A DNA stretch of 63,339 nt from Gemmatimonadota bacterium (GTDB lineage: Bacteria; Gemmatimonadota; Gemmatimonadetes; Palauibacterales; KS3-K002): NCBI GenBank assembly GCA_020350785.1, contig CP070722.1, forward strand, positions 4,020,692 through 4,084,030, written 5' to 3'. The notes beneath the pieces were generated by a model. It saw nothing but the letters and a program-made list of their open reading frames with translations, was not told the origin of the DNA and searched no databases. Numbering within the stretch: the stretch's first letter is position 1; each line of letters starts with the position of its first letter. A program made the translations under genes and the position numbers. This document shows, piece by piece, positions 44,150 to 59,119 of this stretch.

Positions 44150-44389
44150 ATGGATTGCGCTATTTGTGGCGCCGACCTGCACATAGATGCACTCAAATGC
44201 CTGACCTGTGGGGCGCCGGCCGATGACCGAGCGACTTCAGGCGAGCGGTCGCAATGCTCGCTCTGTCGGGAGGTGCTCTGGTCGCTCGCCGAGACCTGCG
44301 TGCACTGCAAGGCCAGAGGCTACCCCGCACTGCGACCAAGGTTGGGCGACAAGAGTCGCGGCGCTCCGGAGGACGAGATCGGCGCGTAG
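44150..44389 (+). CDS. Double zinc-ribbon small protein (79 aa)
   Basis: Two C-x2-C-x10-C-x2-C units (CAIC/CLTC and CSLC/CVHC); AGGAG RBS. Confidence 0.75.
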   Translation: MDCAICGADLHIDALKCLTCGAPADDRATSGERSQCSLCREVLWSLAETCVHCKARGYPALRPRLGDKSRGAPEDEIGA

Positions 44390-44529
44390 CCCCATCCTGC
44401 AGAGTGTCACAATCATCCAAGTATAGACGTCGTTCCAGTGGGGATGGCGATTGCGCTACGAGGGTTGGGCGCCTCGTGTTTGGAGGCCGCCGCGCTCTCT
44501 TTGGAAGTGGAAGCTGCAGTGGAGGAACC

Positions 44530-45777
44530 ATGAGAACAATAATCGCTTTGGGCACGACCTTATGGGTGGCAGCGCTGACGACGAGCTGCGGCAGTGACCC
44601 CGTTGGGCCCCAGGAGATCACCCAGCTGCCGCGCGACCTGGAAGTAGCGGAGGTCGAGCTCATCGCAGCGGACAACGCTTTCGGCTTGAAGCTCTTCCGC
44701 CAGATCCAGGCGGAGACCGCTGACGGCAACATCTTCGTCTCGCCGCTCAGCGTGGCCATGGCGTTGGGCATGACCTACAACGGCGCGGCGGGCTCGACGC
44801 TGTCGGCGATGCAAGAGACGCTGGAATTGCAGGGACTCACGCTGGAGCAGGTAAACCGGTCTTACCGTAGCCTTATCGATCTACTTGCCGGCTTGGACCC
44901 GTCCGTCGAGTTCATCCTGGCCAACTCGATCTGGTACCGCCAGGGCTTTCCGGTGGAGCAGAGCTTCCTCGACGTTAATCGGGAGTACTTCGATGCGGAG
45001 GTCGCGGCTCTCGACTTCGCCAGCCCGGGAGCGGCGACGACGATCAATGACTGGGTGGCAGAGAAGACCAACGGGCGGATCGACGAAATCGTGGACAGCC
45101 CCATCGATCCGATCCTCGTCATGTTTCTGATCAACGCCATCTACTTCAAGGGCGATTGGACCTATCAGTTCGACCGAGATCTTACCAGGGACGCGCCGTT
45201 TTTCCTGGAGAGTGGTAGCGAGAAGCTGGTTCCCACGATGGCTTACGGTGAACCAGTCGAGGTGGGCTACTACAAGGACTCGGAGATCGAGGCTGTGGAT
45301 CTGCCCTACGGTGGCAAGGCCTATAGTATGACGATCATGCTGCCGGTGGGTGAAGGTAATGTCGGTGCTCTGGTGGAGTCTCTCGATGGAGCCCGCTGGG
45401 CGCAAGTAGTGGGAGGCATGGCCGTACTGGAGGCCGAGGTGCGGATGCCGAAGTTCACCCTGGAGTACGAGCTGGAGCTTAACGATGCACTCAAGGCCCT
45501 GGGCATGGAGGTAGCCTTCGATCAAGGGGCGGCGGACTTCTCCAAGATCTATCCGGGCCCCGAGCGCCTGTTCATCAGCAAGGTCAAGCACAAGACTTTC
45601 GTCGACGTGAACGAGGAGGGTACCGAGGCTGCGGCGGTCACGTCGGTCGAGGTCGGGCTGACCTCCGCGCCCCCCGTCATCAGTGTCGACAGGCCGTTCG
45701 TCTTCGTGATACGCGAGAGGCTCTCCAGCACCATTCTGTTCATGGGCCTGATCACGGATCCGGCCGGCGCGGCTTGA
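44530..45777 (+). CDS. Serpin family lipoprotein
   Basis: GGAGG RBS; lipobox LTTS-C; NIFVSPLSV..AL, ANSIW, LINAIYFKG.W, LPY, MPKF, VDVNEEGTEAAAVT hinge, DRPFVFVI. Confidence 0.95.
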   Translation: MRTIIALGTTLWVAALTTSCGSDPVGPQEITQLPRDLEVAEVELIAADNAFGLKLFRQIQAETADGNIFVSPLSVAMALGMTYNGAAGSTLSAMQETLELQGLTLEQVNRSYRSLIDLLAGLDPSVEFILANSIWYRQGFPVEQSFLDVNREYFDAEVAALDFASPGAATTINDWVAEKTNGRIDEIVDSPIDPILVMFLINAIYFKGDWTYQFDRDLTRDAPFFLESGSEKLVPTMAYGEPVEVGYYKDSEIEAVDLPYGGKAYSMTIMLPVGEGNVGALVESLDGARWAQVVGGMAVLEAEVRMPKFTLEYELELNDALKALGMEVAFDQGAADFSKIYPGPERLFISKVKHKTFVDVNEEGTEAAAVTSVEVGLTSAPPVISVDRPFVFVIRERLSSTILFMGLITDPAGAA

Positions 45778-46335
45778 GAGGCCTTGCCAGTAACATTGGC
45801 CACCTTCCGCCTCTGTATGTCGGCGGCCGAGGGCCGGGTGCCGAGACCGGTCAGGCATCCGGCCTCGCTAGTGGCACCCTCGCGACGGTCAAGAGAGCGG
45901 CCGCCAGCGAAGCTCCATAACTCCAGCCATCCCCCAATCCAAGCCGTGAGCCGTTAGCGGCAATACCATCTCGCAAGCCCGAACCAGTCGAGCAGTGAAC
46001 TGGGCTGCAGTTCGCGGGATCGATCCGGGCGCCGTCCCAGGTGGTGCGGTGGCGGCGGCAGAGGAGGCGTGCAGGCACGAGCGTGGCGGCGATGCTGCAA
46101 CGCCCCCGGACGAGGCGTCGATAGTTGCGCAGCTGCAACATACCGGGTCGGGAATGGGCGGCGAAAGCTGTTGCTGGGCGGGACGGAGAGCCGAATCCAA
46201 TGTGGCGCTTGAGGATAGCCCGTGCGAGCCGGCAGGCGCACCCCTGACCCCGAACGTGTACGAACCTTGCGTCCCCGCGAGGCGCTGGAGCAGTGGAGGT
46301 GGATACTTGAACGGAATTGGCTGGGAGGAAGGCAA

Positions 46336-49300
46336 ATGCTAAGTGTTGCAAGGTCTCAGTGGCGTCGGATCCTCGCGGTCCTGGTCGTGGCCGCAGTCTT
46401 CAGCTGCGGCGATGATAGCGGTCCGACCGACCCGACGACCTCCGCCTCGAAGCTGGCGTTCGGGGTGCAGCCGCCGAATGGAACGGCGGGGGAGGAACTC
46501 GCGCCGGCGGTGACCGTGCTGATCCAGGACGACGACGGGAACACGATCAGCGACGCCACGAACGCCGTCACCGTCGCGCTCGACGCGAACCCGGGTTCGG
46601 GAACGTTGTCGGGAGCCAGGACGGTCAATGCGGTGAACGGCGTCGCGACATTCGGCGACCTCTCAATCGGTGAGGCGGCGAATGGCTACAGCCTTCGCGC
46701 CACTGCCAGCGGATTAGCCGCAGCGACGAGCAGCACCTTCAACATCCAGCCGGCGGCGGCAGCGAGGCTGGTGTTCACCGTTCAGCCGTCGGCGGCGACG
46801 ATTGGCGCTGCCATCGCGCCTGCCGTCGAAGTGTCGATCCAGGACGCTCTGGGGAACTTGGTGACGAGTGCCACCAACCAAGTGACGATCGCGCTGGGCG
46901 CGAATCCGGGCGGCGCCACTCTGTCTGGGGCCAGGACGGTCAACGCGGTCAGTGGCGTCGCGACGTTTGACGAGCTGAAGCTCGATCAGGTGGCAAACGG
47001 ATACACGCTGACGGCGACGGCCTCCGGCCTGACGGGGGCGACGAGCATCGCTTTCAATATCTTGAGCGGCCAGCTGGCGTTCTCGGTGCAGCCGAGCGAC
47101 GCTGCCGCGGGAGCCGCTATCTCGCCGGCAATCCAGGTCGAGGTGCGTGATCAGTCGGGCAACCTGATCTCGGGCGCGAGTAATTCGGTCACGGTCGCGA
47201 TCGGCGACAACCCGGGAGGCGGAACGTTGTCAGGTGCCGCGACCGTCAACGCGGTCAACGGCGTAGCCACGTTCAGCGACCTGTCGATCGAGAAGGCGGG
47301 TGTTGGTTACACGCTGACGGCCACCAGCGCGGATCTGGTGAGCGCGACGAGCGAGGCGTTTGACATCGGCGGGGGCGCGCCGTTCCGCCTCGCCTATCGG
47401 ATCGAGCCGAGCGACGCCGCGGCCGGCGCGGCTATCTCGCCGGCGATCGAGGTGGAGATCCGAGACGAGTTCGATAACCTGGTGGGTACGGCGACGGACG
47501 CGGTGACGCTTGCCATCGACTCGAATCCAAGTGGTGGCACGCTCACGGGTACGGAGACACAGAACGCGGTCAACGGCATAGCGACGTTCAGCGACCTGTC
47601 GATCGATAAGGCGGGCCCTGGCTATACACTCCTCGCAAGTGCCAGTGGGCTGAGCGACGCGACCAGCGCCGGGTTCGAGATCACCGCTGCGGAGCCGACT
47701 CAGCTTGGCTTTTCGATCCAGCCGAGCGATGCTGGCGCCGGTATCGTGATAGCGCCTGCGGTCGAGGTGGAGGTTCTGGATGGCTTCGGTAACCGGGTGA
47801 CGACGGCTACCGATGCGGTGACCGTCGCCATCGGCACCAACCCGGGCTCGGGCGCGTTGTCGGGCACGAAGACGGCCAACCCGGTCTTGGGCGTGGCCAC
47901 CTTCGATGACCTCTCTATCGACAAGGCGGGCGTCGGCTACACGCTGACGGCGAGTGCCAGTGGTCTGACGGGCGACACGAGCGATGCGTTCGAGATTACG
48001 GGCGGTGATGCAACCAGGCTCGTATTCATCGTGGACCCCAGCGATGCGACCGCCGGTGAGCTGATAGCGCCGGCTGTCCAAGTGCAGGTGCAGGATGGCT
48101 TTGGCAACCCGGTCGGCACGGCGACGAACTCGATCACGCTGGCCATCGGGACGAACCCGGGCGGCGGCAACCTGTCGGGCACGATCACGAAGAGCGCGTC
48201 GGGTGGCGTGGCGACGTTCAGTGACCTGTCGATCGAGAAGTCGGGCACTGGCTACACGCTGGTGGCGAGCGCGACCGATCTGACCGACGGGGAGAGCGCT
48301 GGCTTCGATATCAGCGCGGCGGACGCGACCAAGCTCGCCTTCACCGCGCAGCCAGGCGAGTCGGAGGTCAACCTACCGATCCAGCCGGATGTCGTGGTAC
48401 AGGTTCAGGATCAGTTCGGTAACGTTGTTCCGGGCTCGACCCACTTGATCACGATCAGCATTGGGACCAATCCAGGAGGGGGCACCCTTTCGGGCACGGA
48501 CATGGAGAACGCCGTGGGCGGTGTTGCCGCCTTCGACTCGCTCGTGATCGACAAGCGGGGCAACGGCTACACTTTGAGAGCGACGGCGGCCGGTATCTCC
48601 AGCGCCACGTCGGCGAGCTTCGACCTCGTCTTCTTCTGGAATATGGTGGAGGGGGGTAACGAGCATGCCTGCGGCCTGACCGAGGGCGGCGCTCTCTACT
48701 GCTGGGGTGACAACACCTTCGGCCAGCTGGGCGACGGCACGAATCTCGACAGCAACGTTCCGGTCCGTGTGGCGGGCGGCCTGCTGTTCACCCAGGTCGA
48801 TGCGGCCGAGACGCACACCTGTGCATTGACCGCTGACGGCGATTCCTACTGTTGGGGCGACAACACGCTGGGCCAGCTGGGTGACGGCACGAACACGGCC
48901 AGCAACGTACCGGTGCAGGTCGCGGGTGGCCGGACGTTCGCCTGGATCAACGCAGCGAACCACGGATTCCACACTTGTGGAGTGACCGTGAACAATGCTG
49001 CCTATTGCTGGGGCGATAACGACTTCGGCCAGCTGGGCGACAATTCCACGACGCCCGCGAATACGCCGCAGGCCGTCTCTGGTGGGATCTCGTTCGACAT
49101 GGTGAGCGGTGGCCTCGACCATACCTGCGGCGTGTCCAGCAACGGTACGGGGTACTGCTGGGGCCGCAACTCGGCGCGCCAGTTGGGCAACGGCACCAAC
49201 ACCGACAGCTCGGTGCCGGTGGAGATCTCCGGCGGCCTGGTGTTCGCCGAGATCTGGGCGGGCAGGTTCCATACGTGCAGCATGACGACCGGCAGCGAGG

Positions 49301-49692
49301 CCTACTGCTGGGGCACTAACGGCGACGGCCAGTTGGGCGATGGCACGAACCTGCAGAGCGGCGTGCCGGTATTGGTCGCCGACAGCCACGTCTGGGAGTC
49401 CACGGTGGTGGGGGCCAACCACAGCTGCGGATTGGAGACCGGTGGCGTGGGCTATTGCTGGGGAGACAACGGCGACGGGCGCTTGGGTAACGGTACGACC
49501 ACGAGCGCGAACATCCCGACGCTGATCTCTGGTGGACTACTGTTCTCGCAGATCATGGGCGGCCGGGCGCATACCTGTGGCGTGACGACCGTCGGTGATG
49601 CGTACTGCTGGGGTAGTAACGTGGACGGCCAGCTGGGTAACGGCACCAACTCCCGCAGCTTGACACCCAGCAAGGTGAACGACCCGTTCTAG
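46336..49692 (+). CDS. Surface lipoprotein with seven Ig-like repeats and a C-terminal RCC1/BLIP-II seven-bladed propeller
   Basis: Lipobox VFS-C; seven ~104-aa repeats (L.F..QP....G..I.P.V.V..QD..GN ... GVATF.DL.I...G.GYTL.A...); seven H.C......YCWG.N..GQLG.G repeats. Start ATG 46336. Confidence 0.9.
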   Translation: MLSVARSQWRRILAVLVVAAVFSCGDDSGPTDPTTSASKLAFGVQPPNGTAGEELAPAVTVLIQDDDGNTISDATNAVTVALDANPGSGTLSGARTVNAVNGVATFGDLSIGEAANGYSLRATASGLAAATSSTFNIQPAAAARLVFTVQPSAATIGAAIAPAVEVSIQDALGNLVTSATNQVTIALGANPGGATLSGARTVNAVSGVATFDELKLDQVANGYTLTATASGLTGATSIAFNILSGQLAFSVQPSDAAAGAAISPAIQVEVRDQSGNLISGASNSVTVAIGDNPGGGTLSGAATVNAVNGVATFSDLSIEKAGVGYTLTATSADLVSATSEAFDIGGGAPFRLAYRIEPSDAAAGAAISPAIEVEIRDEFDNLVGTATDAVTLAIDSNPSGGTLTGTETQNAVNGIATFSDLSIDKAGPGYTLLASASGLSDATSAGFEITAAEPTQLGFSIQPSDAGAGIVIAPAVEVEVLDGFGNRVTTATDAVTVAIGTNPGSGALSGTKTANPVLGVATFDDLSIDKAGVGYTLTASASGLTGDTSDAFEITGGDATRLVFIVDPSDATAGELIAPAVQVQVQDGFGNPVGTATNSITLAIGTNPGGGNLSGTITKSASGGVATFSDLSIEKSGTGYTLVASATDLTDGESAGFDISAADATKLAFTAQPGESEVNLPIQPDVVVQVQDQFGNVVPGSTHLITISIGTNPGGGTLSGTDMENAVGGVAAFDSLVIDKRGNGYTLRATAAGISSATSASFDLVFFWNMVEGGNEHACGLTEGGALYCWGDNTFGQLGDGTNLDSNVPVRVAGGLLFTQVDAAETHTCALTADGDSYCWGDNTLGQLGDGTNTASNVPVQVAGGRTFAWINAANHGFHTCGVTVNNAAYCWGDNDFGQLGDNSTTPANTPQAVSGGISFDMVSGGLDHTCGVSSNGTGYCWGRNSARQLGNGTNTDSSVPVEISGGLVFAEIWAGRFHTCSMTTGSEAYCWGTNGDGQLGDGTNLQSGVPVLVADSHVWESTVVGANHSCGLETGGVGYCWGDNGDGRLGNGTTTSANIPTLISGGLLFSQIMGGRAHTCGVTTVGDAYCWGSNVDGQLGNGTNSRSLTPSKVNDPF
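46450..48627 (+). repeat. Seven tandem ~310-nt Ig-like domain coding repeats
   Basis: Recurrent DNA such as gtcaacgcggtcaacggcgt..cgacgttcagcgacctgtcgatcga.aaggcggg. Confidence 0.85.
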
Positions 49693-49760: not shown

Positions 49761-49799
49761 GACACGAGGGGCGGTGGCTTGGCCACCGCCCCTCGTGTC
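49761..49799. terminator. Bidirectional hairpin terminator between convergent genes
   Basis: gacacgaggggcggtggc-ttg-gccaccgcccctcgtgtc, a perfect 18-bp stem. Confidence 0.75.
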
Positions 49800-49836: not shown

Positions 49837-52800
49837 TCAGGGTGTCCGAGCGACCCTCGCATTCAGCGCAGCGATGAACTTGGGGAGCGTCTTGAAGAGA
49901 TCGCCGACCACCGGGTAGACTTTGGGACGCTCGCGCCGCTGGTTCAACGTCATTAGCGGCGCCTGGGGGTCCATGTTGAAGGCGAAGATCACGGCGCGGT
50001 CGCCAACCCAGTCCAGGTGTTGAGGCGCGCCGGAGACGCCGAGCGCGATCATGACGCGCGGGTTCACTCGCACACCGGTCTGACCGATTTGATGCTCGTC
50101 GGGCAGCCAGCTCAGGTCCATCGTCACCTTGCGGGTGGCGCCGATCAAGACGTGCGGGGCGCCCAGCCGGATGAGCGTTTGGCGGAGGGGCTCGACCAAC
50201 GTCTCCAAGTTGTCGACCGAACCCAGACCCGCTCCCACATCGATGACGAACTCGGCATTCTGGAGGCTGACGACGCCAAGGGCCTCCTTGGCCTCAGCCA
50301 GCGCCCGGGCGATCCTGTCGCGCTCGGGGTCGTAGTCGAGTCTGAGCTGGATGGTGAGAACCTCGGCCTGCGCGGCCGCTAGCCTGCCGCTTTCGGCAGC
50401 ACTGACCTCCGGCTCACACCACAGAATACGCATACCGTTTCCGCGCGCTGGCCGGTGCCGCGTTGCCCGCAAGCGGCGCTCGTGTACCGGCCTGACAAAC
50501 GCGATGCCGTCCCCATCGCCGTAGTCCACACGGTTTACTCCGGGCACCTCCTCGGCGGACAAGCCCGCAGCGCGCAGCGCGTCCCCCAGAGCTGGCAAGG
50601 CATCGGCCAACCAAGCAGAGGTCAGCAGATAGTCGGGCCGCGTATGCGTGTCGGGCCCCAGGAGTTGGATCAGCGCCTCGGCGTATGCCGGCTGTGCGCT
50701 GCTTCCCAGGGCGGCATGCTCGGCGAAGACCAGTCGCGTCAGGGGCGCCAGAGCCAGGAGCTGCCCGGCGGCAGCTCGCCGCTGCGCATCGGATAGGGGC
50801 TGGCTGAGAACGAGAACGCTGAGCGGCGCATCGTTGTGGGCGGCGATAGACTCGGCCGCGGCCAGGGGCGCGCGGGCACTGCGAGCCAACTCCTCGTCCT
50901 CCAGCTCGGCGATGAATAGGACACCGCTCCAGTCCAGCGACTCGGCGGCGGCCTCTCGAATGCCGTCCCGATAGGGCGTCCCCGCAGTCGCCCTCGTGCC
51001 ATCGCCCAGATCGCCGACCTCGATGAGCACCGCGGCCGCCCGGTCACGGTCGACGCTGCCCGAGTCCTCGGCGCGCTCGATCCCGGCCGTGGCCGCCGCG
51101 CCTGCCAGCAACTCGTCCGACCGCTCGGCCTGCGCGGGGAAGGAGGCGACGTGGACAGGCTGTTCCAGGGCACGGTTGAACCCGAGTGTGTCGAAGTCCC
51201 AGTTCGAGTGTGCTCCAGTGCCGGACACGGCTCCCACACAAGGGAGGTCCAGGCGAATGATGTCGGGGAAGCGGTCGCTGGCGCAGGTGAGTGCGCCGCC
51301 CCCCACCCAAAGATCGGTGACCCCCGGTGCCCGCTGAAGGGCGAGCAGGTCGGCGAGCCGCAGGCCGAGGCGGCCTTCGCTGGGGCCATCTTCAGAAGCG
51401 CTGGCGAGCAGCAGATGCAACTCGATGCCGCGAGCGCGAAGCAGATCCACGATCGCTGCGGCCGCCGCCTGCTCCGAGTAGGATTCGCCGCCGGTGTCGA
51501 GCAGGATGGCTTCGTCCGCGCCTGCGGCCAGTGCAAAACGCAGCGAGTCCTCGGCGACCAATGGCGCTGCACAGACCAGGGTCACACGCACGCGTTCCGG
51601 CGCCGCTCGCTTCAGCTCGAGCGCCAATTTCAGGGCACGCCGATCGCCGGCGCTGAACTTAAAGACGTGTTCGACCAGGCGCCCGGCTTCGAGGCGCGGC
51701 CGCGGGGCCAGCGCGGGCGTCAATTCTGGAACGAGTACGATCTTGAGGTCCTGATCAATGGCGTCGCGAGGGACAGCGTCAGTCGTGGTCGGGGCGCTGG
51801 GAGCCGCGTCGGACTCGTCGAAGACGGTCTCGGCCAGGCGCAGCTCTGCCGTTCGACCGCAGGTTGTCAACGTCTCGACGTCGCGGTCGAAGGATCGCAC
51901 CAGACGCGAGAACTCACGACGCGCATGTGAAACGAATCCGCGTGCCGCGCCGTCACACCACGCCCGCCGTACGGCGTCTCCCTCAGCGGTCAAGTTTCCA
52001 GAGATCCAATCAGCGCGGCGGATAACGGTGTCCACGGCCTTGATCACGGCCACCATCCGCGACAGTCGGAAGAAGATCGGCTGTAGCAGCGCGCGCTGCC
52101 AGGCGGCACTCTTGTAGCGGCCGCGTGTGAGCTTCACGCGTTCGTGCAGAGCACTCAACATCTCATTGAATATTTCGATCTCACTCTTGTAAGGAGAATC
52201 GCTGACCACCGGGGCAAGGCCTTCGAGCTTCTCTATCGCCGGCCCGATCATATCGACCAGGTCCTTGAGAAGCAGGAACTGCTGGATCTCGTTCGTGCCC
52301 TCGTAGATGGTCATCACGCGCGCGTCGCGGCGGTCCTTCTCGATGCGGTACCTCTGCAGCTGGCCCTGAATACCGTAGAGCGGCTCCAGGTAGTGCAGAT
52401 TACGGTGCAGGCCATCGGTGCCGAACAGCTTGCCGACCGACGATTCGATGCGAGGCATGTCGCTCGTCTTGTCGTCGTAGAGGCCGATCAAGTCGTACGC
52501 CAATGACTCGATGACGAACATCTCCTCGAGGGCGAGGCCGAGGCGGTAGCGAGCCCAGCCCTGTGATTTACGCGGAAGATCCGCCAGGTATGCGGTGACG
52601 TCACCGATGGCCTGCTGAATGCTTGCAGCGGATGAGATACAGAGGCCGGTTCTCCCGACATTGAGAGTTTCGAGAGCGTTCTCTTGGCCGCGTCCCTCGA
52701 TCCCGATCACGCACTCTCGCGGGATGCGGACGTTCGTCAGAGTGATCTCGTTGGTGCAGGAGCCGCGCTGCCCTGTCTTCTCCTCGTCCTTGCCGACGAG

Positions 52801-55800
52801 GAATCCTTCGGTGAGGGCGTCGACCATGAATCCGGTCACGCCTACGGGAGTACGCGCGTAGATCGCCTCCACGGCGGCGATGTGGGCATTGGTGATCCAC
52901 ATCTTGGCACCGTTGAGCACGTAGAACTCGTAGTACTCGGCGCCGTCGCGTTCGCGGATCAGGGCCATGTCGTGGATATCGATGCGCCGGTCGCCGATCG
53001 TGAAATAGCGGTACTTTTCCTCGCCTTCGTCGTAGCTGAACTCCAGCGATTGGACCTCGGCGGGCTCGGCAGCATCGCTGTATCGGTAGAGTATCTTCGA
53101 GCGGTCGAACTCGAAGCGCTGCAACTCGGCGATGTTGCGGCGGCCTTCCTCCGCTTCTTCGTCGAGATAGAAGTACTTCACACCGTCGGCATCGGTGTGC
53201 ACGCGCCGCGAGTCGAGATGGGCATCCGTGCGTATGCGTGCCGTGTCGGATCCGGCGCTGGGCTCGGTGAGGGCGAAGGCCGAAATCGCGCGCGCCGAGA
53301 TGAGGCGAAGGTAGAACTCGTGAGCCAGCCGGCGGCGCGGCATCTCGGCGAGCTCGGCGGAGGCACGCTCCTGCCAGCCCTCGAGGGCGGCCAGCGCCTT
53401 CTCCAGGCCCTTTGCGAAGCCGTGGAGGTCGCCCTTCAAACCGGCCATCCCACCCTTCTGCCACGACGACAAGAACTTGCTGAAGACGACCTTCTTGAGG
53501 ATGCGGCTTCTGCTTAGCTTGCCGCGGACCTCTTTGTCCAGGGCGATGTAGGCCTGCTTCAGCTGCTCGAAGTCGGGCCGTTTCATCATCGCCAGGATCC
53601 TCCGGATACCGTCGGCGATTTCCTGAACGGCCGCCGGTTGGTCGACCGCCGCCTGCAAGTCGCGCTCGGCCACCTTGACCTCGTCGAGGCCGAGCAGCAT
53701 CGGGGTAGTACCGATGCTGTATGATGCCTGGATGGTCAGGGTGTTGCTAATGTCTGCTAGGCGCTTGGCTACCATGCAGAGGTTATAGTAATCGGCCTTC
53801 CAGCGGCCCTGGCCCCCGTATTCCTGCGGAATAGGCACGCGGAAGTGGCCCTGCTCCAGGCTCCAGTCGATCTCCTCGCGCGGGATGTAATGGAGCCGCT
53901 CGACGTAGCGCTCGAAGGATGGCTGCCATGCAGCTTCGACGTAGCGGCGACGAAAGAGCTGTAGGTACTCCTCGTATTGAGAGCGCAGCGATGTGTCGGC
54001 CCAGAGCAGCTCGGGCAGGTAGCGCCTCTCCTCCAGATTTAGCGGCTCGAGCAAGAACGCACCGGAACGATATCCGCGCTGGCCCCCCACGATGTCGCGC
54101 TGGTAGTCGAAATCCAAATCGTCGGTCGCGACGGGCGTGTCGGGGTAACCGTCGAGTTGGAAAGCCAGGCCGCCCAGCTCCACGCGGCCGGCCACCGCAG
54201 CCAGCTCATCATCGAGATCGACCAGGCGCTCTTCGACGAGATCGGCCCAGAGTTGCGCCGCTTCGACATGGCGCTGGGCCGGGAGCGCGCCCTCCAGGCG
54301 GCGATGGGCACGGACCAGAAGGCGAGCCCAGATGTACAGGCTCGTGGCCACTTCGCCGACGATGTCGTGCACGGCCTGGCGAGCGCTAGGGACGTCGGCT
54401 TGCTCCAAGGCCTGGCGCAGCGCGCGGCTGAGCTCCGTCTCGGCTGCTCGAATTCGCCGCGCCTCGAAGTCGAGTATCGGTTTGCGCTCCATAACGTCGA
54501 GGGCGGCGGGGATGTCGCTCGCGATGGTCCCCAGCAGCGGGCCTGCACCGGCCGAGAGGCATTCGCCGATCTCGATCTGTAAGAGGGGGTTCTCTCGGAT
54601 ATAGTGCGGGAGTACCGAGCTGTCGCGATAGATCTTTGAGAAGACGTCGTCTTCCGAGAACGCGGTGCCTCCGATGACCTGACCGGCACGGTAGGTGATG
54701 CTCGGCATATCGGGGCCGAAGATGGTCGTGACGGCCACCTTGCCCAGCAGCATTTCTAGAACTGGGTCGAGATCGGCCCAGGGCGTATCCAACAGGAGAG
54801 TCTCCAAAGCCAGGCGGCCGGCCTCGATGTGGGCGATGTGAGCGCGCACCGCACCGAACTTGCCGATCGCGTCACGGCCATCGACGTCCTGGAACATGTC
54901 GGGGAACTGGATCCTGCCACGGGCATGATCCACCGTGCGCTCGGAAAGCAATGAACCGGCGCCGTATGCGATTGATGCCACGTCGCGCGCGCGTAGACCG
55001 AACAGGGCCGCTTCGTCGGACGGCGACCAGTCCGCTTCCCACACCGGACGAGCACTTGCGAGGGTGACGCATCCGATTGCCGCACCCGTCAGGCCGATTG
55101 CGGGTGTCTGTTCGGTCGTTACGGCGGTGTCACCAAACTCGAATAGGGCGACGCGACCGCCGCCCCGCGCCACGATGCTCTCGGCGACTGCCAGCGGCAC
55201 AAAGGGAAGCTCGCCCTGCCAACCGTCAACCCCGGGCTCCGCTTCAACTTCGAACGCGACGGCCGTGAGCCGATCGCCGCTGCGGAGGGTTCTTAGGAGA
55301 TGATCGGGTGCGCCGCCGCGTTCAAGGGCTTCCACGCCGGCCAGGTGAGCGGCGACGATCGTAGCCATCGAGGAGTCAACCCGCGCCAGCTCGGCCAGCA
55401 CATCCTGGCGCGCCACGAACTGCCAACGAGCCGCCGCTTCGTGCTCGATGGCGCCGAGACCCAAGCGGGCGATGAAGCGCAGCAGTTCGATCTCTGCCTG
55501 CTCGAGAGTTCCACCGTGCTCGAGTCGACGTACGGCCAGGCGATCGAATCCGGCGGCCAGCCGCTCGCGCAGGGCTTGGCGTCCCGCTTCGCGCTCGGCT
55601 GAGGGGACCTCTAAAGAACGCAGCTCGGTTACGGGGTCCGGGTATTCTTCCGGGATCAGGCAGGCTCCGGCGATGCGTTCGATGCATGTTTTCATGCCCC
55701 GGAGATGGTGATCGCGTATTTGACGCGCGTCGGCGACTGCCGCGAAGAACCGATTCGCGCTGGCGTGCTGGCGCACGTTCGCCGTTGCCGCCTCGAGATC

Positions 55801-58305
55801 TCGCTTCAGCTGGAGCAGCTCCACGTGGGCCGCGTTCATTTCGCGGTCGACGAGCCAAACTTCTATGGGTTCGGCGAGGGCGGCGGCGGCGGCCTCCTCG
55901 GCAAGATCTGCGAAGTATTCGATCGCGCCGCGATACCAGTTAACCTGGCCGGCTTCCAGTACGCGCGCCCCATTCCAGACATTGTCGTGCAGCTCCCAGC
56001 ACTTCGCCTCCACCGTCCGAATAGCCCTTCGTGCGTCGCTGATGGCGTCGACCATCATCGCGGCGGCCGGCTCGACCCGCTCGCCTGTGCAGATATCTGC
56101 CATGGCGACATGCCAGTAGCTCTCCGCGATGCCGGGGACCGCTTTAAGTTTTCTTTCGGAGAGGACCCGGCGTAGCGCTCCGTCCGCCTCGGTATACACC
56201 TCGTAGGTCAAACGATGTTTGCCGAATCGCGTCCAATCCACATGCTGCGGCTCGATGCGCCAGCACGTCTCGCACTTCACGCAGTTCTCGAAGTTCACCG
56301 TCACGGAGGCGTGCAGTGTGCGATCGACGTTGATCTGATAGACCGCCGCCGGGCACACGGTCCAGAGTGCCGAGCGGCTTGGATCCTCAAGCTTCCCGGG
56401 CTCCTCAGGAGGGAAGAACACTTTGATGTGCGAGCCGTGCTCGCCTTCGTAGCTTATCTCGCCGAGCTTAGCGTCGTGCGTCTTGGCGATGGGGAGGCGA
56501 CCGGGCGTCATATCGGTGTGGGCGCGCCAGGCGGTCATCCAGCCGCCGTAGAACGTGGCCTCCTTCGCCGCAGGGACGAGCTTGCTTCGGCGGTGTCGTA
56601 TGACTTGGCTGAGGTTCTGGGCGGCGCGGGTCAGCGGAAGCCCGATCGCGCCCACGGCCGCGCCGAGTAGCTCCCAAAGCGAGAGGCGCCGCATGACGAT
56701 TCCCACGCAGCGATCCAGCTTCTGGGCGATCGGGACGCCGTCGTTGGAGTATAGTACGCCGGCAGCCCTGGAGAGCGCCGGCGTGAGGCGGGCGCCCAGC
56801 CAGCGCTTGTACCACGGCAGTTGCCCGGTCTTTTCGTCCTTGACCCAGAGGCTGAAGGTCAGATGGCCGTCAGCGCGGCCCCAGGCGAACGGTAGGAGTG
56901 CGAGCAACGTGTTGGGGATCGAGAGCAGCATTGCCAGCGGGGCGTGCTTCAGGACGAAGCGGCCCAGGTGCAGGGCTTTGGCGCCGCGGTTGAGGTCGCG
57001 ATAAGTGGCGAGCCAGTTACCCCTAAGCGTCTCGTAGAGCATGCGGGTGAGTTCCCACCACTTACGTGGGAGATTGAGCTGTGGACGGGTCAGGGTGTAA
57101 AGGGATCCGTTCAAGACGTCGATCTGTCGTCCGAAGAGGGCCTCGCTGTGCTCGATGAAGGCGGGCCAGTCTTGCAGGTGCTCGACGTCCTTGAAGTAGT
57201 TGCTGGACTTGACGCGATCGACGTACAACTGTTCTAGGCGCTCTCTGGATGGAGGCTGGTCGGCGGCGTGCAACTCGATGACGGCCTCGGCAAAGAGCTT
57301 GCCCATGGCGCAGGCCGGCCCTGTAAAATTGGGGTAGGGGAAGTCCACGCCGATGCCGGTGGCCGCGCCGCCGACGGCCACGCCGTCGTCCACCAACTCG
57401 GGCAACTCCTTGATGCCGCCGCCGCGAATGATTTTTGCTCCGTACGATGTGGACTCCCCGCCCTCGATGAGACGCTTAATCGGCGGCAGCCCCTTGTACC
57501 ACTCCATCAAGCTGTTGTAGTCGCCACCGAAGTGAGCGAGGTTGTCGAGGGGTAGGACGAGGCCCAATGAGATGCTGGAGCGGTTGGTGTAGATGAAGCC
57601 GGCCATATTGAGGCGAACCGTCTTGCCATCCAGAGCGCCGTTCCGCAGAAGAACTTCGTAACAGGCGCCCTCATCATTGCGGAGGTCGAAGCGTTCCTCG
57701 ATGATGCGCGGGTCGAGCTGGATGACCTCCTTTACCCCTTGAAGAAAGGCAGGCTGCCCGCTCTGCTTGGAGCGAACGTAATCGCGCTCGAACCCCTCCT
57801 TGCTGACGAGATGCGCGGCATCGCCCTCGGCGAGGAACACGACATCGCTGTAGAGGGGTCCGCGGTCCGTGTTCACCCCGATCACGCGGCCGGCGCGGCG
57901 GATCAGCCCGTCGACGGTGGTTTCGGTGAGCAAGGTGACACCGAGTTGGCGGGCGCGTTCGGCCAGGTAGCGGTCGTAGACGGGGCGCAGTACGGTGTAG
58001 CAGTGGCGGAAAGCCTCGGGATTGCGGTATACGGCGCCGGCGAGCGTGAGTCCGTTGGTGGCGAAGAAGCCGCGCTTGACGACGCGTCGCTCGTACGGCG
58101 CCGCCAGCAACTCGGCTTCGCCGAATACGTTGGGATCAGCCAGCCCCTCGGCGAAATACACGGCGCCCGACCAGTTCTCGGCACCCGGGTAGACGGCGGC
58201 CTCTACGACCAGGACGTCCAGCTTCTGACGTGCGGCCCGCAGCGCAGCGGTGACGCCGGCGGGTCCGCCCCCGACGACGATGATATCCCACAGCTTCTTG
58301 CCCAT
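49837..58305 (-). CDS. 2822-aa fusion: FixC/ETF-QO-like flavoprotein + [4Fe-4S] ferredoxin + degenerate acyl-CoA dehydrogenase + acyl-CoA dehydrogenase + EtfB + EtfA
   Basis: IIVVGGGPAG and FLAEG (FixC); CPAAVY..CVKCETC (C651, C675/678/681); R.QF and Q..GG (ACAD1); AFALTEPSAGSD, LNGAKMWITN, IYEGTNEIQ (ACAD2); DRRALKLAL, ALAAGAD (EtfB); GATR..W....QIGQTG..V.P....LGVSGAPQH (EtfA). Confidence 0.9.
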   Translation of the reverse strand: MGKKLWDIIVVGGGPAGVTAALRAARQKLDVLVVEAAVYPGAENWSGAVYFAEGLADPNVFGEAELLAAPYERRVVKRGFFATNGLTLAGAVYRNPEAFRHCYTVLRPVYDRYLAERARQLGVTLLTETTVDGLIRRAGRVIGVNTDRGPLYSDVVFLAEGDAAHLVSKEGFERDYVRSKQSGQPAFLQGVKEVIQLDPRIIEERFDLRNDEGACYEVLLRNGALDGKTVRLNMAGFIYTNRSSISLGLVLPLDNLAHFGGDYNSLMEWYKGLPPIKRLIEGGESTSYGAKIIRGGGIKELPELVDDGVAVGGAATGIGVDFPYPNFTGPACAMGKLFAEAVIELHAADQPPSRERLEQLYVDRVKSSNYFKDVEHLQDWPAFIEHSEALFGRQIDVLNGSLYTLTRPQLNLPRKWWELTRMLYETLRGNWLATYRDLNRGAKALHLGRFVLKHAPLAMLLSIPNTLLALLPFAWGRADGHLTFSLWVKDEKTGQLPWYKRWLGARLTPALSRAAGVLYSNDGVPIAQKLDRCVGIVMRRLSLWELLGAAVGAIGLPLTRAAQNLSQVIRHRRSKLVPAAKEATFYGGWMTAWRAHTDMTPGRLPIAKTHDAKLGEISYEGEHGSHIKVFFPPEEPGKLEDPSRSALWTVCPAAVYQINVDRTLHASVTVNFENCVKCETCWRIEPQHVDWTRFGKHRLTYEVYTEADGALRRVLSERKLKAVPGIAESYWHVAMADICTGERVEPAAAMMVDAISDARRAIRTVEAKCWELHDNVWNGARVLEAGQVNWYRGAIEYFADLAEEAAAAALAEPIEVWLVDREMNAAHVELLQLKRDLEAATANVRQHASANRFFAAVADARQIRDHHLRGMKTCIERIAGACLIPEEYPDPVTELRSLEVPSAEREAGRQALRERLAAGFDRLAVRRLEHGGTLEQAEIELLRFIARLGLGAIEHEAAARWQFVARQDVLAELARVDSSMATIVAAHLAGVEALERGGAPDHLLRTLRSGDRLTAVAFEVEAEPGVDGWQGELPFVPLAVAESIVARGGGRVALFEFGDTAVTTEQTPAIGLTGAAIGCVTLASARPVWEADWSPSDEAALFGLRARDVASIAYGAGSLLSERTVDHARGRIQFPDMFQDVDGRDAIGKFGAVRAHIAHIEAGRLALETLLLDTPWADLDPVLEMLLGKVAVTTIFGPDMPSITYRAGQVIGGTAFSEDDVFSKIYRDSSVLPHYIRENPLLQIEIGECLSAGAGPLLGTIASDIPAALDVMERKPILDFEARRIRAAETELSRALRQALEQADVPSARQAVHDIVGEVATSLYIWARLLVRAHRRLEGALPAQRHVEAAQLWADLVEERLVDLDDELAAVAGRVELGGLAFQLDGYPDTPVATDDLDFDYQRDIVGGQRGYRSGAFLLEPLNLEERRYLPELLWADTSLRSQYEEYLQLFRRRYVEAAWQPSFERYVERLHYIPREEIDWSLEQGHFRVPIPQEYGGQGRWKADYYNLCMVAKRLADISNTLTIQASYSIGTTPMLLGLDEVKVAERDLQAAVDQPAAVQEIADGIRRILAMMKRPDFEQLKQAYIALDKEVRGKLSRSRILKKVVFSKFLSSWQKGGMAGLKGDLHGFAKGLEKALAALEGWQERASAELAEMPRRRLAHEFYLRLISARAISAFALTEPSAGSDTARIRTDAHLDSRRVHTDADGVKYFYLDEEAEEGRRNIAELQRFEFDRSKILYRYSDAAEPAEVQSLEFSYDEGEEKYRYFTIGDRRIDIHDMALIRERDGAEYYEFYVLNGAKMWITNAHIAAVEAIYARTPVGVTGFMVDALTEGFLVGKDEEKTGQRGSCTNEITLTNVRIPRECVIGIEGRGQENALETLNVGRTGLCISSAASIQQAIGDVTAYLADLPRKSQGWARYRLGLALEEMFVIESLAYDLIGLYDDKTSDMPRIESSVGKLFGTDGLHRNLHYLEPLYGIQGQLQRYRIEKDRRDARVMTIYEGTNEIQQFLLLKDLVDMIGPAIEKLEGLAPVVSDSPYKSEIEIFNEMLSALHERVKLTRGRYKSAAWQRALLQPIFFRLSRMVAVIKAVDTVIRRADWISGNLTAEGDAVRRAWCDGAARGFVSHARREFSRLVRSFDRDVETLTTCGRTAELRLAETVFDESDAAPSAPTTTDAVPRDAIDQDLKIVLVPELTPALAPRPRLEAGRLVEHVFKFSAGDRRALKLALELKRAAPERVRVTLVCAAPLVAEDSLRFALAAGADEAILLDTGGESYSEQAAAAAIVDLLRARGIELHLLLASASEDGPSEGRLGLRLADLLALQRAPGVTDLWVGGGALTCASDRFPDIIRLDLPCVGAVSGTGAHSNWDFDTLGFNRALEQPVHVASFPAQAERSDELLAGAAATAGIERAEDSGSVDRDRAAAVLIEVGDLGDGTRATAGTPYRDGIREAAAESLDWSGVLFIAELEDEELARSARAPLAAAESIAAHNDAPLSVLVLSQPLSDAQRRAAAGQLLALAPLTRLVFAEHAALGSSAQPAYAEALIQLLGPDTHTRPDYLLTSAWLADALPALGDALRAAGLSAEEVPGVNRVDYGDGDGIAFVRPVHERRLRATRHRPARGNGMRILWCEPEVSAAESGRLAAAQAEVLTIQLRLDYDPERDRIARALAEAKEALGVVSLQNAEFVIDVGAGLGSVDNLETLVEPLRQTLIRLGAPHVLIGATRKVTMDLSWLPDEHQIGQTGVRVNPRVMIALGVSGAPQHLDWVGDRAVIFAFNMDPQAPLMTLNQRRERPKVYPVVGDLFKTLPKFIAALNARVARTP

Positions 58306-58495: not shown

Positions 58496-59005
58496 TTATC
58501 GTGGCCGAGTCGCGGCCGAGCCTGCCGGTACCGGCTCGCGGATCAGTGAGTCGCTAACTTTGCCGAGCTCCCGAGCGATGTCGAGGGCGGAATCAGCGAC
58601 TTGATTGTGGAGGGCGACGATATCACGACAGGCTTGCCAGTGAGACCTCAAGGTGTCGCCTGCCGCAGCCCGGGCCGGAATTCCACGGTTGTAAGCCCGA
58701 AAGGCTTGCAGGTAGGAGTCGTAGCTCTCGGCCGGCACTCCGGCTGGATCGAGACCTTCGTAGTGCTCGATGAGGTTACGGAGCGAGTCGAACCGGGCAT
58801 CGCTGGCGCGCAGCTGTTCCTCCTCCAGTTCCAGGGCCGCGAGACAGGAGTCGGCGGCGGTGCGCAGGTTTGAGAGTTCCTCGCGCAGGAGGCGGAGGCG
58901 TTGAGCAGGTGGAACAGGCGTCAGCAGGTCGATCGTGACGATAGCGACGAACACGACCACGGAGATCGTGAGCATCACGACAAACGGTCTTGAGGGTGCT
59001 GGCAT
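58496..59005 (-). CDS. Hypothetical protein with N-terminal TM anchor and coiled coil
   Basis: FVVMLTISVVVFVAIVTIDLL TM followed by heptad-rich LRLLREELSNLR..LELEEEQL; start ATG 59005. Confidence 0.6.
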   Translation of the reverse strand: MPAPSRPFVVMLTISVVVFVAIVTIDLLTPVPPAQRLRLLREELSNLRTAADSCLAALELEEEQLRASDARFDSLRNLIEHYEGLDPAGVPAESYDSYLQAFRAYNRGIPARAAAGDTLRSHWQACRDIVALHNQVADSALDIARELGKVSDSLIREPVPAGSAATRPR

Positions 59006-59119
59006 ATTGGTCTTTGATAGTTTCCAACTGGACTTCCGGTTGCACAAATAGCGCCGGGCTTCGGCTCATGCGCAACCCCGGGCGGAGAACTGCGAGCGGG
59101 CGGCCAGAGGAGGCGGGAT

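Follow-up and report, generated by a model that had tools for sequence, protein, structure and literature searches.

A conserved 2822-residue fusion of quinone-reductase, acyl-CoA dehydrogenase and electron-transfer flavoprotein modules, a probable single-chain acyl-CoA:quinone oxidoreductase

The window analyzed here is the whole 63,339-nucleotide stretch of contig CP070722.1 (positions 4,020,692 to 4,084,030) from a Gemmatimonadota bacterium, and this study concerns one of its genes, which encodes a fusion of a FixC-like flavoprotein, a ferredoxin domain, two modules of the acyl-CoA dehydrogenase (ACAD) family and both parts of an electron-transfer flavoprotein (ETF). The original prediction, made from the DNA alone, had described a single uninterrupted 8469-nt frame with six such modules in this order. 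The open reading frame (ORF) listing and the translation of the window agree that the frame is free of interruptions, and each of the named modules was recovered by Pfam, NCBIfam or family-profile matches. The start codon agrees with the starts of the homologs (N-terminus MGKKLWDIIVVGGGPAG), the mass of the protein is estimated at ~310 kDa, and the G+C content at the gene (0.61-0.70) is similar to that of the surrounding DNA. The features of the gene are as follows; ETF-QO denotes ETF:quinone oxidoreductase, VLCAD very-long-chain acyl-CoA dehydrogenase, FAD flavin adenine dinucleotide, and pLDDT the predicted local distance difference test score of the AlphaFold2 (AF2) models.

49837..58305, minus strand: whole fusion ORF, 2822 aa, ATG start, stop codon included
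57106..58305, minus strand: FixC-like FAD flavoprotein, aa 1-400, with GxGxxG at G12/G14/G17; putative quinone-reducing module
56386..57105, minus strand: family-specific helical insert, aa 401-640, between the FixC and Fe-S modules; pLDDT ~85-95
56629..56685, minus strand: hydrophobic helix within the insert, aa 541-559, LSLWELLGAAVGAIGLPLT; family-averaged Kyte-Doolittle hydropathy 1.85 over 19 aa
56191..56385, minus strand: ETF-QO/FixX-type ferredoxin domain, aa 641-705, predicted to hold one [4Fe-4S]; ligands C651, C675, C678 and C681
55594..56190, minus strand: helical linker, aa 706-904, gap-rich and poorly conserved; pLDDT <50; shortened in Verrucomicrobiota
53986..55593, minus strand: ACAD1, VLCAD-type pseudo-ACAD, aa 905-1440, keeping R1131-x-Q1133-F1134 and Q1209-x-x-G1212-G1213
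51826..53985, minus strand: ACAD2, predicted catalytic VLCAD-type ACAD with large inserts, aa 1441-2160
51016..51759, minus strand: EtfB-like module, aa ~2183-2430, ETF domain III plus arm; its zipper loop, aa 2305-2312, reads EDGPSEGR in the window and is divergent
49861..50937, minus strand: EtfA-like module, aa ~2457-2815, ETF domains I and II

A homolog search covering 5.8 billion proteins returned 79 fusion homologs, mostly of 2300-2970 aa and with 33-68% identity, most of which carry the same precomputed Pfam set. In a scan of one genome per species, relatives are present in 205 species-representative genomes from at least eight phyla. Among the best 80 loci, the carriers belong to Gemmatimonadota, Acidobacteriota, Planctomycetota/Gemmatales, Verrucomicrobiota, Nitrospirota/Leptospirillia, Armatimonadota and Lentisphaeraceae, and the relatives from Gemmatimonadota are the closest, at 60-69% identity. 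The fusion frame is intact over 2500-2950 codons in most relatives where the contig permits, and the family conservation profile shows that the inter-domain regions are conserved as well. All carriers are uncultured metagenome-assembled genomes (MAGs), some of which are closed chromosomes. Full-length homologs in independent genomes, which the original prediction had named as a check on itself, are therefore found repeatedly. Additionally, database labels for the homologs are generic ('FAD-binding protein', 'acyl-CoA dehydrogenase family protein'), and a literature search found no publication describing the fusion architecture, as had been supposed at the outset. Collectively, the fusion is real, conserved and undescribed, and its chemistry and part families are already known.

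Several variants occur within this distribution. Two MAGs labeled Alcaligenaceae (loci L025 and L066) carry fusions 32-34% identical to the window protein; their presence there is explained either by horizontal transfer into Betaproteobacteria or by mis-binning of the contigs. Verrucomicrobiota loci L055, L057, L059, L069, L070, L071, L074 and L075 encode short forms of ~2480-2580 aa, with deletions in the linker (720-840), the N/middle domain of ACAD1 (1000-1040) and the C-extension of ACAD1 (1280-1360); these forms also lack the EtfB zipper loop and retain the ACAD1 core 1121-1240. L060 clusters with these short forms, yet its frame is 2883 aa. At L058, L061, L065 and L078, the longest frame spans merely 1500-2200 aa despite a continuing contig, which may be due to a frameshift, a pseudogene, an assembly error or a gene that is truly split. 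Comparison of the ACAD1 profile with 1.84 billion representatives gave 103 clusters at E <= 1e-30, mostly 2300-2900-aa fusions. Three shorter proteins from this comparison (P0154, P0200 and P0216, 1400-1700 aa) are FixC-like, one of them with an ETF domain near the C-terminus, and two of ~730 aa (P0155 and P0217) have no Pfam match; all five match solely the helical-extension part of the profile and may represent split or ancestral forms of the fusion system. P0219 (2974 aa) is an unrelated giant fusion of methylmalonyl-CoA mutase, a B12-binding domain, a VLCAD-type ACAD, an HpcH/citrate-lyase-like aldolase and a MaoC dehydratase, and looks like a fused acyl-CoA carbon-skeleton pathway.

The N-terminal module begins with a Pfam FAD Rossmann domain, in which G12, G14 and G17 of the GxGxxG motif are invariant across the family. 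NCBIfam FixC matches aa 2-387 at 1e-46, under its full-length cut-off. The family profile matches Thermotoga maritima FixC/EtfC (7koe_C) at 1e-55 over aa 4-421 and porcine ETF-QO (2gmh) at 1.6e-21, and PF21162 (ETFQO_UQ-bd) gives a weak match (E 0.046). The AF2 model of aa 1-900 is confident for residues 1-720, with block mean pLDDT mostly 80-97; it superposes on 7koe_C with a template-modeling (TM) score of 0.88 and a root-mean-square deviation of 2.8 Å and aligns with 2gmh over ~750 columns. Both the profile and the model comparison reveal that the 240-aa helical insert has no counterpart in 7koe_C. The hydrophobic helix at aa 541-559 of this insert is conserved across the family and is a candidate monotopic membrane anchor. 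A single crossing would place the FixC and Fe-S domains on opposite sides of the membrane, so a monotopic or buried helix is likelier. Two transmembrane helices in the insert were also considered and rejected, because the family conserves just one hydrophobic segment there.

The Fe-S domain gives a weak match to Pfam Fer4_ETF_QO at aa 649-691. C651, C675, C678 and C681 are the sole invariant cysteines in 65 full-length homologs, and they align with the cluster cysteines of ETF-QO 2gmh (CPAGVY...NCVHCKTC) and with part of those of EtfX 7koe_D. T. maritima EtfX carries two [4Fe-4S] clusters (PMC10734219). The extra cysteine of EtfX (RIVCP) is replaced in the fusion (WRIEP) and in ETF-QO (DIKDP), and the fusion conserves four cysteines, not the eight of a two-cluster FixX/EtfX. 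By this comparison, the domain would be able to bind one cluster, as in ETF-QO, and not two, as in FixX. The FixC and ferredoxin modules of the original prediction are thus both present, and the ferredoxin is refined to a one-cluster, ETF-QO-style domain.

As a single sequence, the ACAD1 segment (aa 880-1440) has no Pfam match. Its family profile matches VLCAD 8ca1_B (8e-16), a butyryl-CoA dehydrogenase (1e-12) and ChsE 4x28_D among others, and hhalign relates the ACAD1 and ACAD2 profiles with a probability of 93.5%. ACAD2 contains PF02771, PF02770 and PF00441 (the N, M and C domains) above cut-off at aa 1453-2009, and its Protein Data Bank (PDB) matches include CarC (8e-58), Bcd, VLCAD and ACAD9. 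Two large family-specific inserts lie at aa ~1540-1675 and ~1695-1790. The C-terminal helical domain of VLCAD is covered by the profile alignments of both modules (2z1q and 3owa for ACAD2). Alignment of both module families to a canonical ACAD of the same genome gave the following distribution of motifs.

TEPxAGSD (flavin side): absent from ACAD1; present in ACAD2 as TEPSAGSD, aa 1680-1687
WITN (flavin side): absent from ACAD1; present in ACAD2 as MWITN, aa 1802-1806
Catalytic Glu in YEGT: absent from ACAD1 (Leu/Ile or variable); present in ACAD2 as Y2001-E2002-G-T
R-x-Q-F (ADP side, partner): kept in ACAD1 as R1131, Q1133 and F1134; deleted in ACAD2
Q-x-x-G-G (ADP side, partner): kept in ACAD1 as Q1209, G1212 and G1213; lost in ACAD2

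TEPSAGSD, MWITN and Y2001-E2002-G-T of ACAD2 are all invariant across the family. In enzymes of the medium-chain acyl-CoA dehydrogenase (MCAD) type, the RxxFG and QxxGG motifs hold the ADP part of the FAD of the partner subunit. In ChsE4-ChsE5, one subunit accounts for the isoalloxazine, the catalytic Glu and the substrate, and the other binds solely the ADP-ribose of FAD (PMC11153573). The fusion exhibits the same split as ChsE4-ChsE5 (4x28) and ChsE1-ChsE2, with the flavin/Glu side in ACAD2 and the ADP side in ACAD1. The complementary motifs therefore imply one FAD and one active site per pair. ACAD1 appears, from these residues, to be a catalytically dead partner subunit of ACAD2, and the alpha-like ACAD2 and beta-like ACAD1 should form a one-active-site pseudo-heterodimer like ChsE4-ChsE5. 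The possibility that ACAD1 is a second active dehydrogenase was rejected because its catalytic and flavin-side motifs are absent; of the two ACADs originally proposed, both belong to the family by profile, but only ACAD2 retains the motifs of a dehydrogenase. In contrast to the two-gene alpha2beta2 enzymes of the ChsE type, the fusion has both halves on one chain, beta-like and then alpha-like. Moreover, both halves are VLCAD-type with C-terminal extensions, and the steroid-catabolism context is missing, as the neighbors are unrelated or fad genes. The AF2 model of aa 905-2104 (mean pLDDT 90.2, predicted TM score 0.89) predicts that ACAD1 and ACAD2 form one rigid body, and the top Foldseek hits are to VLCAD, ACAD9 and further long ACADs.

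The C-terminal modules comprise both parts of an ETF. The family profile matches full-length EtfB chains (4kpu_B, 4e-26; 1o94_C, 1e-24; human 1efv_B, 4e-22) and full-length EtfA chains (CarE, 7e-37; 5ol2_A; 7koe_B; human 1efv_A), and Pfam ETF_alpha (PF00766) matches aa 2681-2764 above cut-off at 1.5e-17. The site of the electron-transferring FAD (ET-FAD) is invariant, including R2725, K2726, Q2739, G2741, Q2742, G2744, S2758-H2763, N2777 and D2779. No residue of EtfA domain I is invariant. Bifurcating ETFs have DGDTAQ at the EtfB zipper, and canonical ETFs have DDDSNQ; the first Asp of the zipper is found in 100% of canonical ETFs, and zipper conservation is comparably high in bifurcating ETFs (PMC8958531). 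A domain-I Arg is present in 447 of 449 canonical ETFs and is required for binding AMP or the bifurcating FAD (PMC8958531). When the family was aligned to the canonical EtfB and EtfA of the window genome itself, the zipper columns were variable and gapped, and the domain-I Arg was present in 6 of 38 sequences. Gemmatimonadota, including the window protein, combine the EDGPSEGR loop with a retained domain-I Arg (R2605); Acidobacteriota and some Planctomycetia have a D-T-x-Q-like zipper loop; and in Verrucomicrobiota the loop is deleted. The canonical (group 1) AMP site is thus not recovered across the family, although the window clade itself keeps the Arg, and the bifurcating (group 2) DGDTAQ signature is absent from the window protein and not conserved in the family. 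The EtfB scores fail to separate bifurcating from canonical chains (4e-26 vs 1e-24). Because the AMP/bifurcating-FAD site is labile across clades, it cannot be essential to the common function of the family. Bifurcation by the family appears unlikely on these signatures, and the findings suggest that covalent fusion relaxed the need for AMP as 'glue' in the ETF base.

The gene neighborhoods of the fusion are conserved within clades only; a neighborhood conserved across phyla was looked for and rejected, as nothing extends beyond clade-level synteny. In eight loci, the fusion is preceded on its own strand by a gene for a FadB-type enoyl-CoA hydratase/3-hydroxyacyl-CoA dehydrogenase, which is immediately adjacent in seven of them. 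The eight are Gemmataceae L038, L049, L056 and L063, Planctomycetota L054, and L025, L039 and L066. At L063, the order is acyl-CoA synthetase, thiolase, FadB and fusion, with gaps of ~10-240 bp and 28 bp before the fusion. The operon at this locus covers beta-oxidation completely, with the fusion standing in for FadE, ETF and ETF-QO. The fadD-fadA-fadB-fusion operon in Gemmataceae and a few other MAGs points to a role in beta-oxidation. The window genome, a single 4.09-Mb contig, has a separate EtfB-EtfA pair and a 617-aa ETF-QO-like protein elsewhere, as well as five other ACADs and several FadB-like genes. With these separate genes in the same genome, the fusion constitutes an additional, dedicated route, which would work alongside a conventional, diffusible ETF system. 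The futalosine-pathway marker PF02621 was not found in the window genome. One canonical ACAD match in this genome (C1:3517318-3517767, plus strand) contains one in-frame TGA within a 438-aa frame, which may reflect a sequencing error, a pseudogene or recoding.

Based on these observations, we propose, with a probability of roughly 60%, that the fusion is an acyl-CoA:quinone oxidoreductase, self-contained on one chain and probably associated with the membrane. Along the path suggested by homology, ACAD2 would oxidize a fatty acyl-CoA in its one active site, with FAD and the catalytic Glu2002, and the dead ACAD1 would complete the FAD site of ACAD2 in trans via ADP-ribose contacts, forming an intramolecular alpha/beta pseudo-heterodimer. 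The ET-FAD of the C-terminal EtfA head would then receive electrons one by one; this head would sit on the EtfB/EtfA base and be free to swing. From the head, the electrons would reach the single [4Fe-4S] of the N-terminal ETF-QO-type domain, then the FixC FAD and the membrane quinone. Menaquinone is the likely quinone in the carrier phyla. The predicted cofactor content is three FAD and one [4Fe-4S]. The full chain from ACAD through ETF to ETF-QO/FixCX that had originally been read from the sequence is borne out, in that all parts are present and their cofactor-binding residues are conserved. We infer the direction of flow, the substrate range, including the one dedicated substrate of the original prediction, the quinone type, the membrane binding and the motion of the head.

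Several points weigh against this proposal. The proposed role of the fusion is read from the sequences of uncultured MAGs, and its membrane binding would depend on one hydrophobic helix. A fad context occurs in just 8 of ~55 informative loci, and the fusion stands alone in the window genome and in most clades. Among solved structures, ACAD2 and EtfA are closest to CarCDE and Bcd-EtfAB, complexes that are reductive and bifurcating. FixABCX and YdiQRST, with CaiA and YdiO, are proposed to run toward enoyl-CoA reduction, and acyl-CoA oxidation with menaquinone is slightly uphill. Finally, R2605 and a D-G-x-S loop are retained in the window clade, and a nucleotide in the ETF base of this protein is possible.

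Two alternatives survive best, although each appears improbable. In the first, the wire is reversed, and the fusion acts as a (mena)quinol-dependent enoyl-CoA reductase in which electrons pass from quinol through the FixC FAD, the [4Fe-4S], the ET-FAD and the ACAD2 FAD to enoyl-CoA, serving anaerobic electron disposal or reverse beta-oxidation. This direction is the one proposed for Escherichia coli CaiA with FixABCX and YdiO with YdiQRST, and menaquinol to enoyl-CoA is downhill. It would suit the reductive CarC/CarE and Bcd/EtfAB as best PDB relatives, a FixC core nearest to the menaquinone-linked T. maritima EtfC, and a host genome that already has a conventional oxidative ACAD/ETF/ETF-QO set. 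However, the Gemmataceae operon with fadD, thiolase and FadB points to a role in degrading free fatty acids, the carrier phyla consist largely of aerobic heterotrophs, and no sequence feature sets the direction.

The second alternative, about as improbable as the first, assigns a substrate outside beta-oxidation, an acyl-ACP or a specialized lipid or secondary-metabolite acyl-CoA, so that the fusion would be a dedicated desaturating or modifying dehydrogenase with direct wiring to the quinone pool. The gene is monocistronic in most clades and lacks fad neighbors there, the host has full conventional beta-oxidation elsewhere, and the two large inserts of ACAD2 are family-specific, all of which would be in keeping with such a substrate. 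In contrast, the fadD-fadA-fadB-fusion operon in 5-8 loci and the VLCAD/ACAD9-type fold and sequence of the ACAD modules argue against such a substrate.

A bifurcating or confurcating enzyme of the EtfABCX type with a built-in ACAD is less probable still. Such an enzyme would hold a second FAD in the ETF base and couple NADH, ferredoxin, quinone and acyl-CoA/enoyl-CoA. The sequence neighbors of the fusion with known structure are bifurcating complexes (6fah, 5ol2 and 7koe), the D-T-x-Q loop of Acidobacteriota and some Planctomycetia resembles the bifurcating signature, and the domain-I Arg kept by the window clade also counts in favor of this reading. However, neither the zipper nor the Arg is conserved family-wide, Verrucomicrobiota have lost the loop altogether, domain I of EtfA lacks any invariant residue, and the fusion would carry one [4Fe-4S] where EtfX has two. 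Bifurcation was rejected, as the zipper and Arg signatures (PMC8958531) are not conserved in the family. Lastly, an artifact of chimeric assembly or of read-through between adjacent genes has next to no probability and was rejected, because the same intact frame is conserved in dozens of independent assemblies from various phyla, studies and assemblers, closed chromosomes included, the inter-domain regions are conserved, the junction-spanning model of aa 905-2104 is confident, and no point in support of an artifact was found.

To place the fusion among known systems, we compared it with separate-protein relays and complexes. The mitochondrial and proteobacterial relay from ACAD (VLCAD/MCAD) through ETF (1efv) to ETF-QO (2gmh) has the same redox modules and the same predicted path. 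The fusion shares with it the single [4Fe-4S] with the C-x(23-24)-C-x2-C-x2-C ligands of ETF-QO, the conserved ET-FAD residues, and the VLCAD-type ACAD fold with its C-terminal helical extension. In contrast, the fusion carries on one 2822-aa chain what is normally divided among five or six proteins. Its flavoprotein core is nearer to FixC than to ETF-QO (1e-55 vs 1.6e-21), with the 240-aa helical insert between the FAD and Fe-S modules, its ACAD would be a one-site pseudo-heterodimer, and the AMP site of its ETF base is not conserved.

With FixABCX/EtfABCX (7koe), the fusion shares the FixC-like fold, the EtfB and EtfA modules, a ferredoxin homologous to EtfX and a presumed quinone partner. 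However, EtfABCX bifurcates from NADH and has a two-cluster EtfX (PMC10734219), whereas the fusion has no conserved bifurcating-FAD signature. Furthermore, the fusion has a built-in ACAD pair, in the order C-X-ACAD-ACAD-B(etf)-A(etf). Bcd-EtfAB and CarCDE (5ol2 and 6fah) give the best sequence matches for ACAD2 and EtfA; in contrast to the fusion, these complexes are soluble, bifurcating, and linked to NADH and ferredoxin, with no quinone reductase, and their ACADs are homo-oligomers. In E. coli, YdiO with YdiQRST and CaiA with FixABCX comprise the same five protein types (ACAD, EtfB, EtfA, FixC and FixX) encoded together; these are separate polypeptides, anaerobic and thought to reduce enoyl-CoA, and they have no pseudo-ACAD partner. 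The order of the fusion is a cyclic permutation of ydiO-ydiQRST, and its ACAD-EtfB-EtfA part is collinear with the bcd-etfB-etfA and carCDE operons. This collinearity and the cyclic permutation make operon fusion plausible as the origin. On this background, the argument of the original prediction that a permuted order speaks against operon fusion is weak.

The relay from ACAD through ETF to ETF-QO is textbook electron transfer via transient complexes, and its defects in humans lead to multiple acyl-CoA dehydrogenase deficiency. The geometry of the relay is difficult to capture, since the ETF head swings between partners. Four features of the fusion are new: an architecture that is complete on a single chain, a beta/alpha ACAD pseudo-dimer whose halves are fused, a joined FixC and ferredoxin with one cluster and a helical insert, and a degenerate ETF base. 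It is possible, though somewhat short of an even chance, that these features define a separate and undescribed class of respiratory dehydrogenase built on a single chain, namely a membrane-anchored acyl-CoA:(mena)quinone oxidoreductase in which covalent fusion has reshaped each part. If so, the ACAD would have become an intramolecular one-active-site pseudo-heterodimer, the ETF would have been cut to an internal swinging head on a base no longer needing AMP or a second FAD, and FixC and a one-cluster ferredoxin would have been joined via a new helical membrane insert. The fusion might then be the main link of fatty-acid oxidation to the quinone pool in several phyla of soil and sediment that are abundant and mostly uncultured. 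A natural chain that fixes the stoichiometry of donor, shuttle and acceptor is an object for cryo-electron microscopy and for kinetics of the whole path. It would also test whether the AMP of ETF is mere subunit 'glue' that is dispensable after fusion, and it would provide a second, independent example of one-active-site ACAD heterodimers. Finally, the fusion marks a way in which lipid electrons may pass to respiration in Gemmatimonadota, Acidobacteriota, Planctomycetota, Verrucomicrobiota and Nitrospirota.

The genes around the fusion in the window are an RCC1-repeat protein (convergent), a uracil-DNA glycosylase, an AsmA-like protein and a serpin, all unrelated, and no beta-oxidation genes are among its neighbors in the window genome; the gene had been described as isolated in this sense from the start. 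The hairpin that had been noted after the gene is also present as a perfect repeat. The flanking features mentioned here are as follows.

44254-45777, plus strand: 507-aa bacterial serpin, near the fusion gene
46222-49692, plus strand: 1156-aa RCC1-repeat protein, convergent with the fusion gene
49761-49778 / 49782-49799, no strand assigned: perfect 18-bp inverted repeat with a 3-nt loop, 38 nt beyond the fusion stop, between convergent genes
58496..59047, minus strand: 183-aa ORF directly upstream of the fusion on the same strand; no Pfam family

The hairpin at 49761-49799 was considered as an intrinsic terminator and rejected, as a T-run is absent and terminator scoring gave no call. The RCC1-repeat protein also matches, weakly and below threshold, the C-terminal domain of glycoside-hydrolase family 2 and an invasin domain. 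The 183-aa ORF is kept at the same position in 11 Gemmatimonadota loci, and its ortholog in L001, the one copy read by eye, has one hydrophobic stretch. This ORF may encode an accessory or anchor subunit of the fusion.

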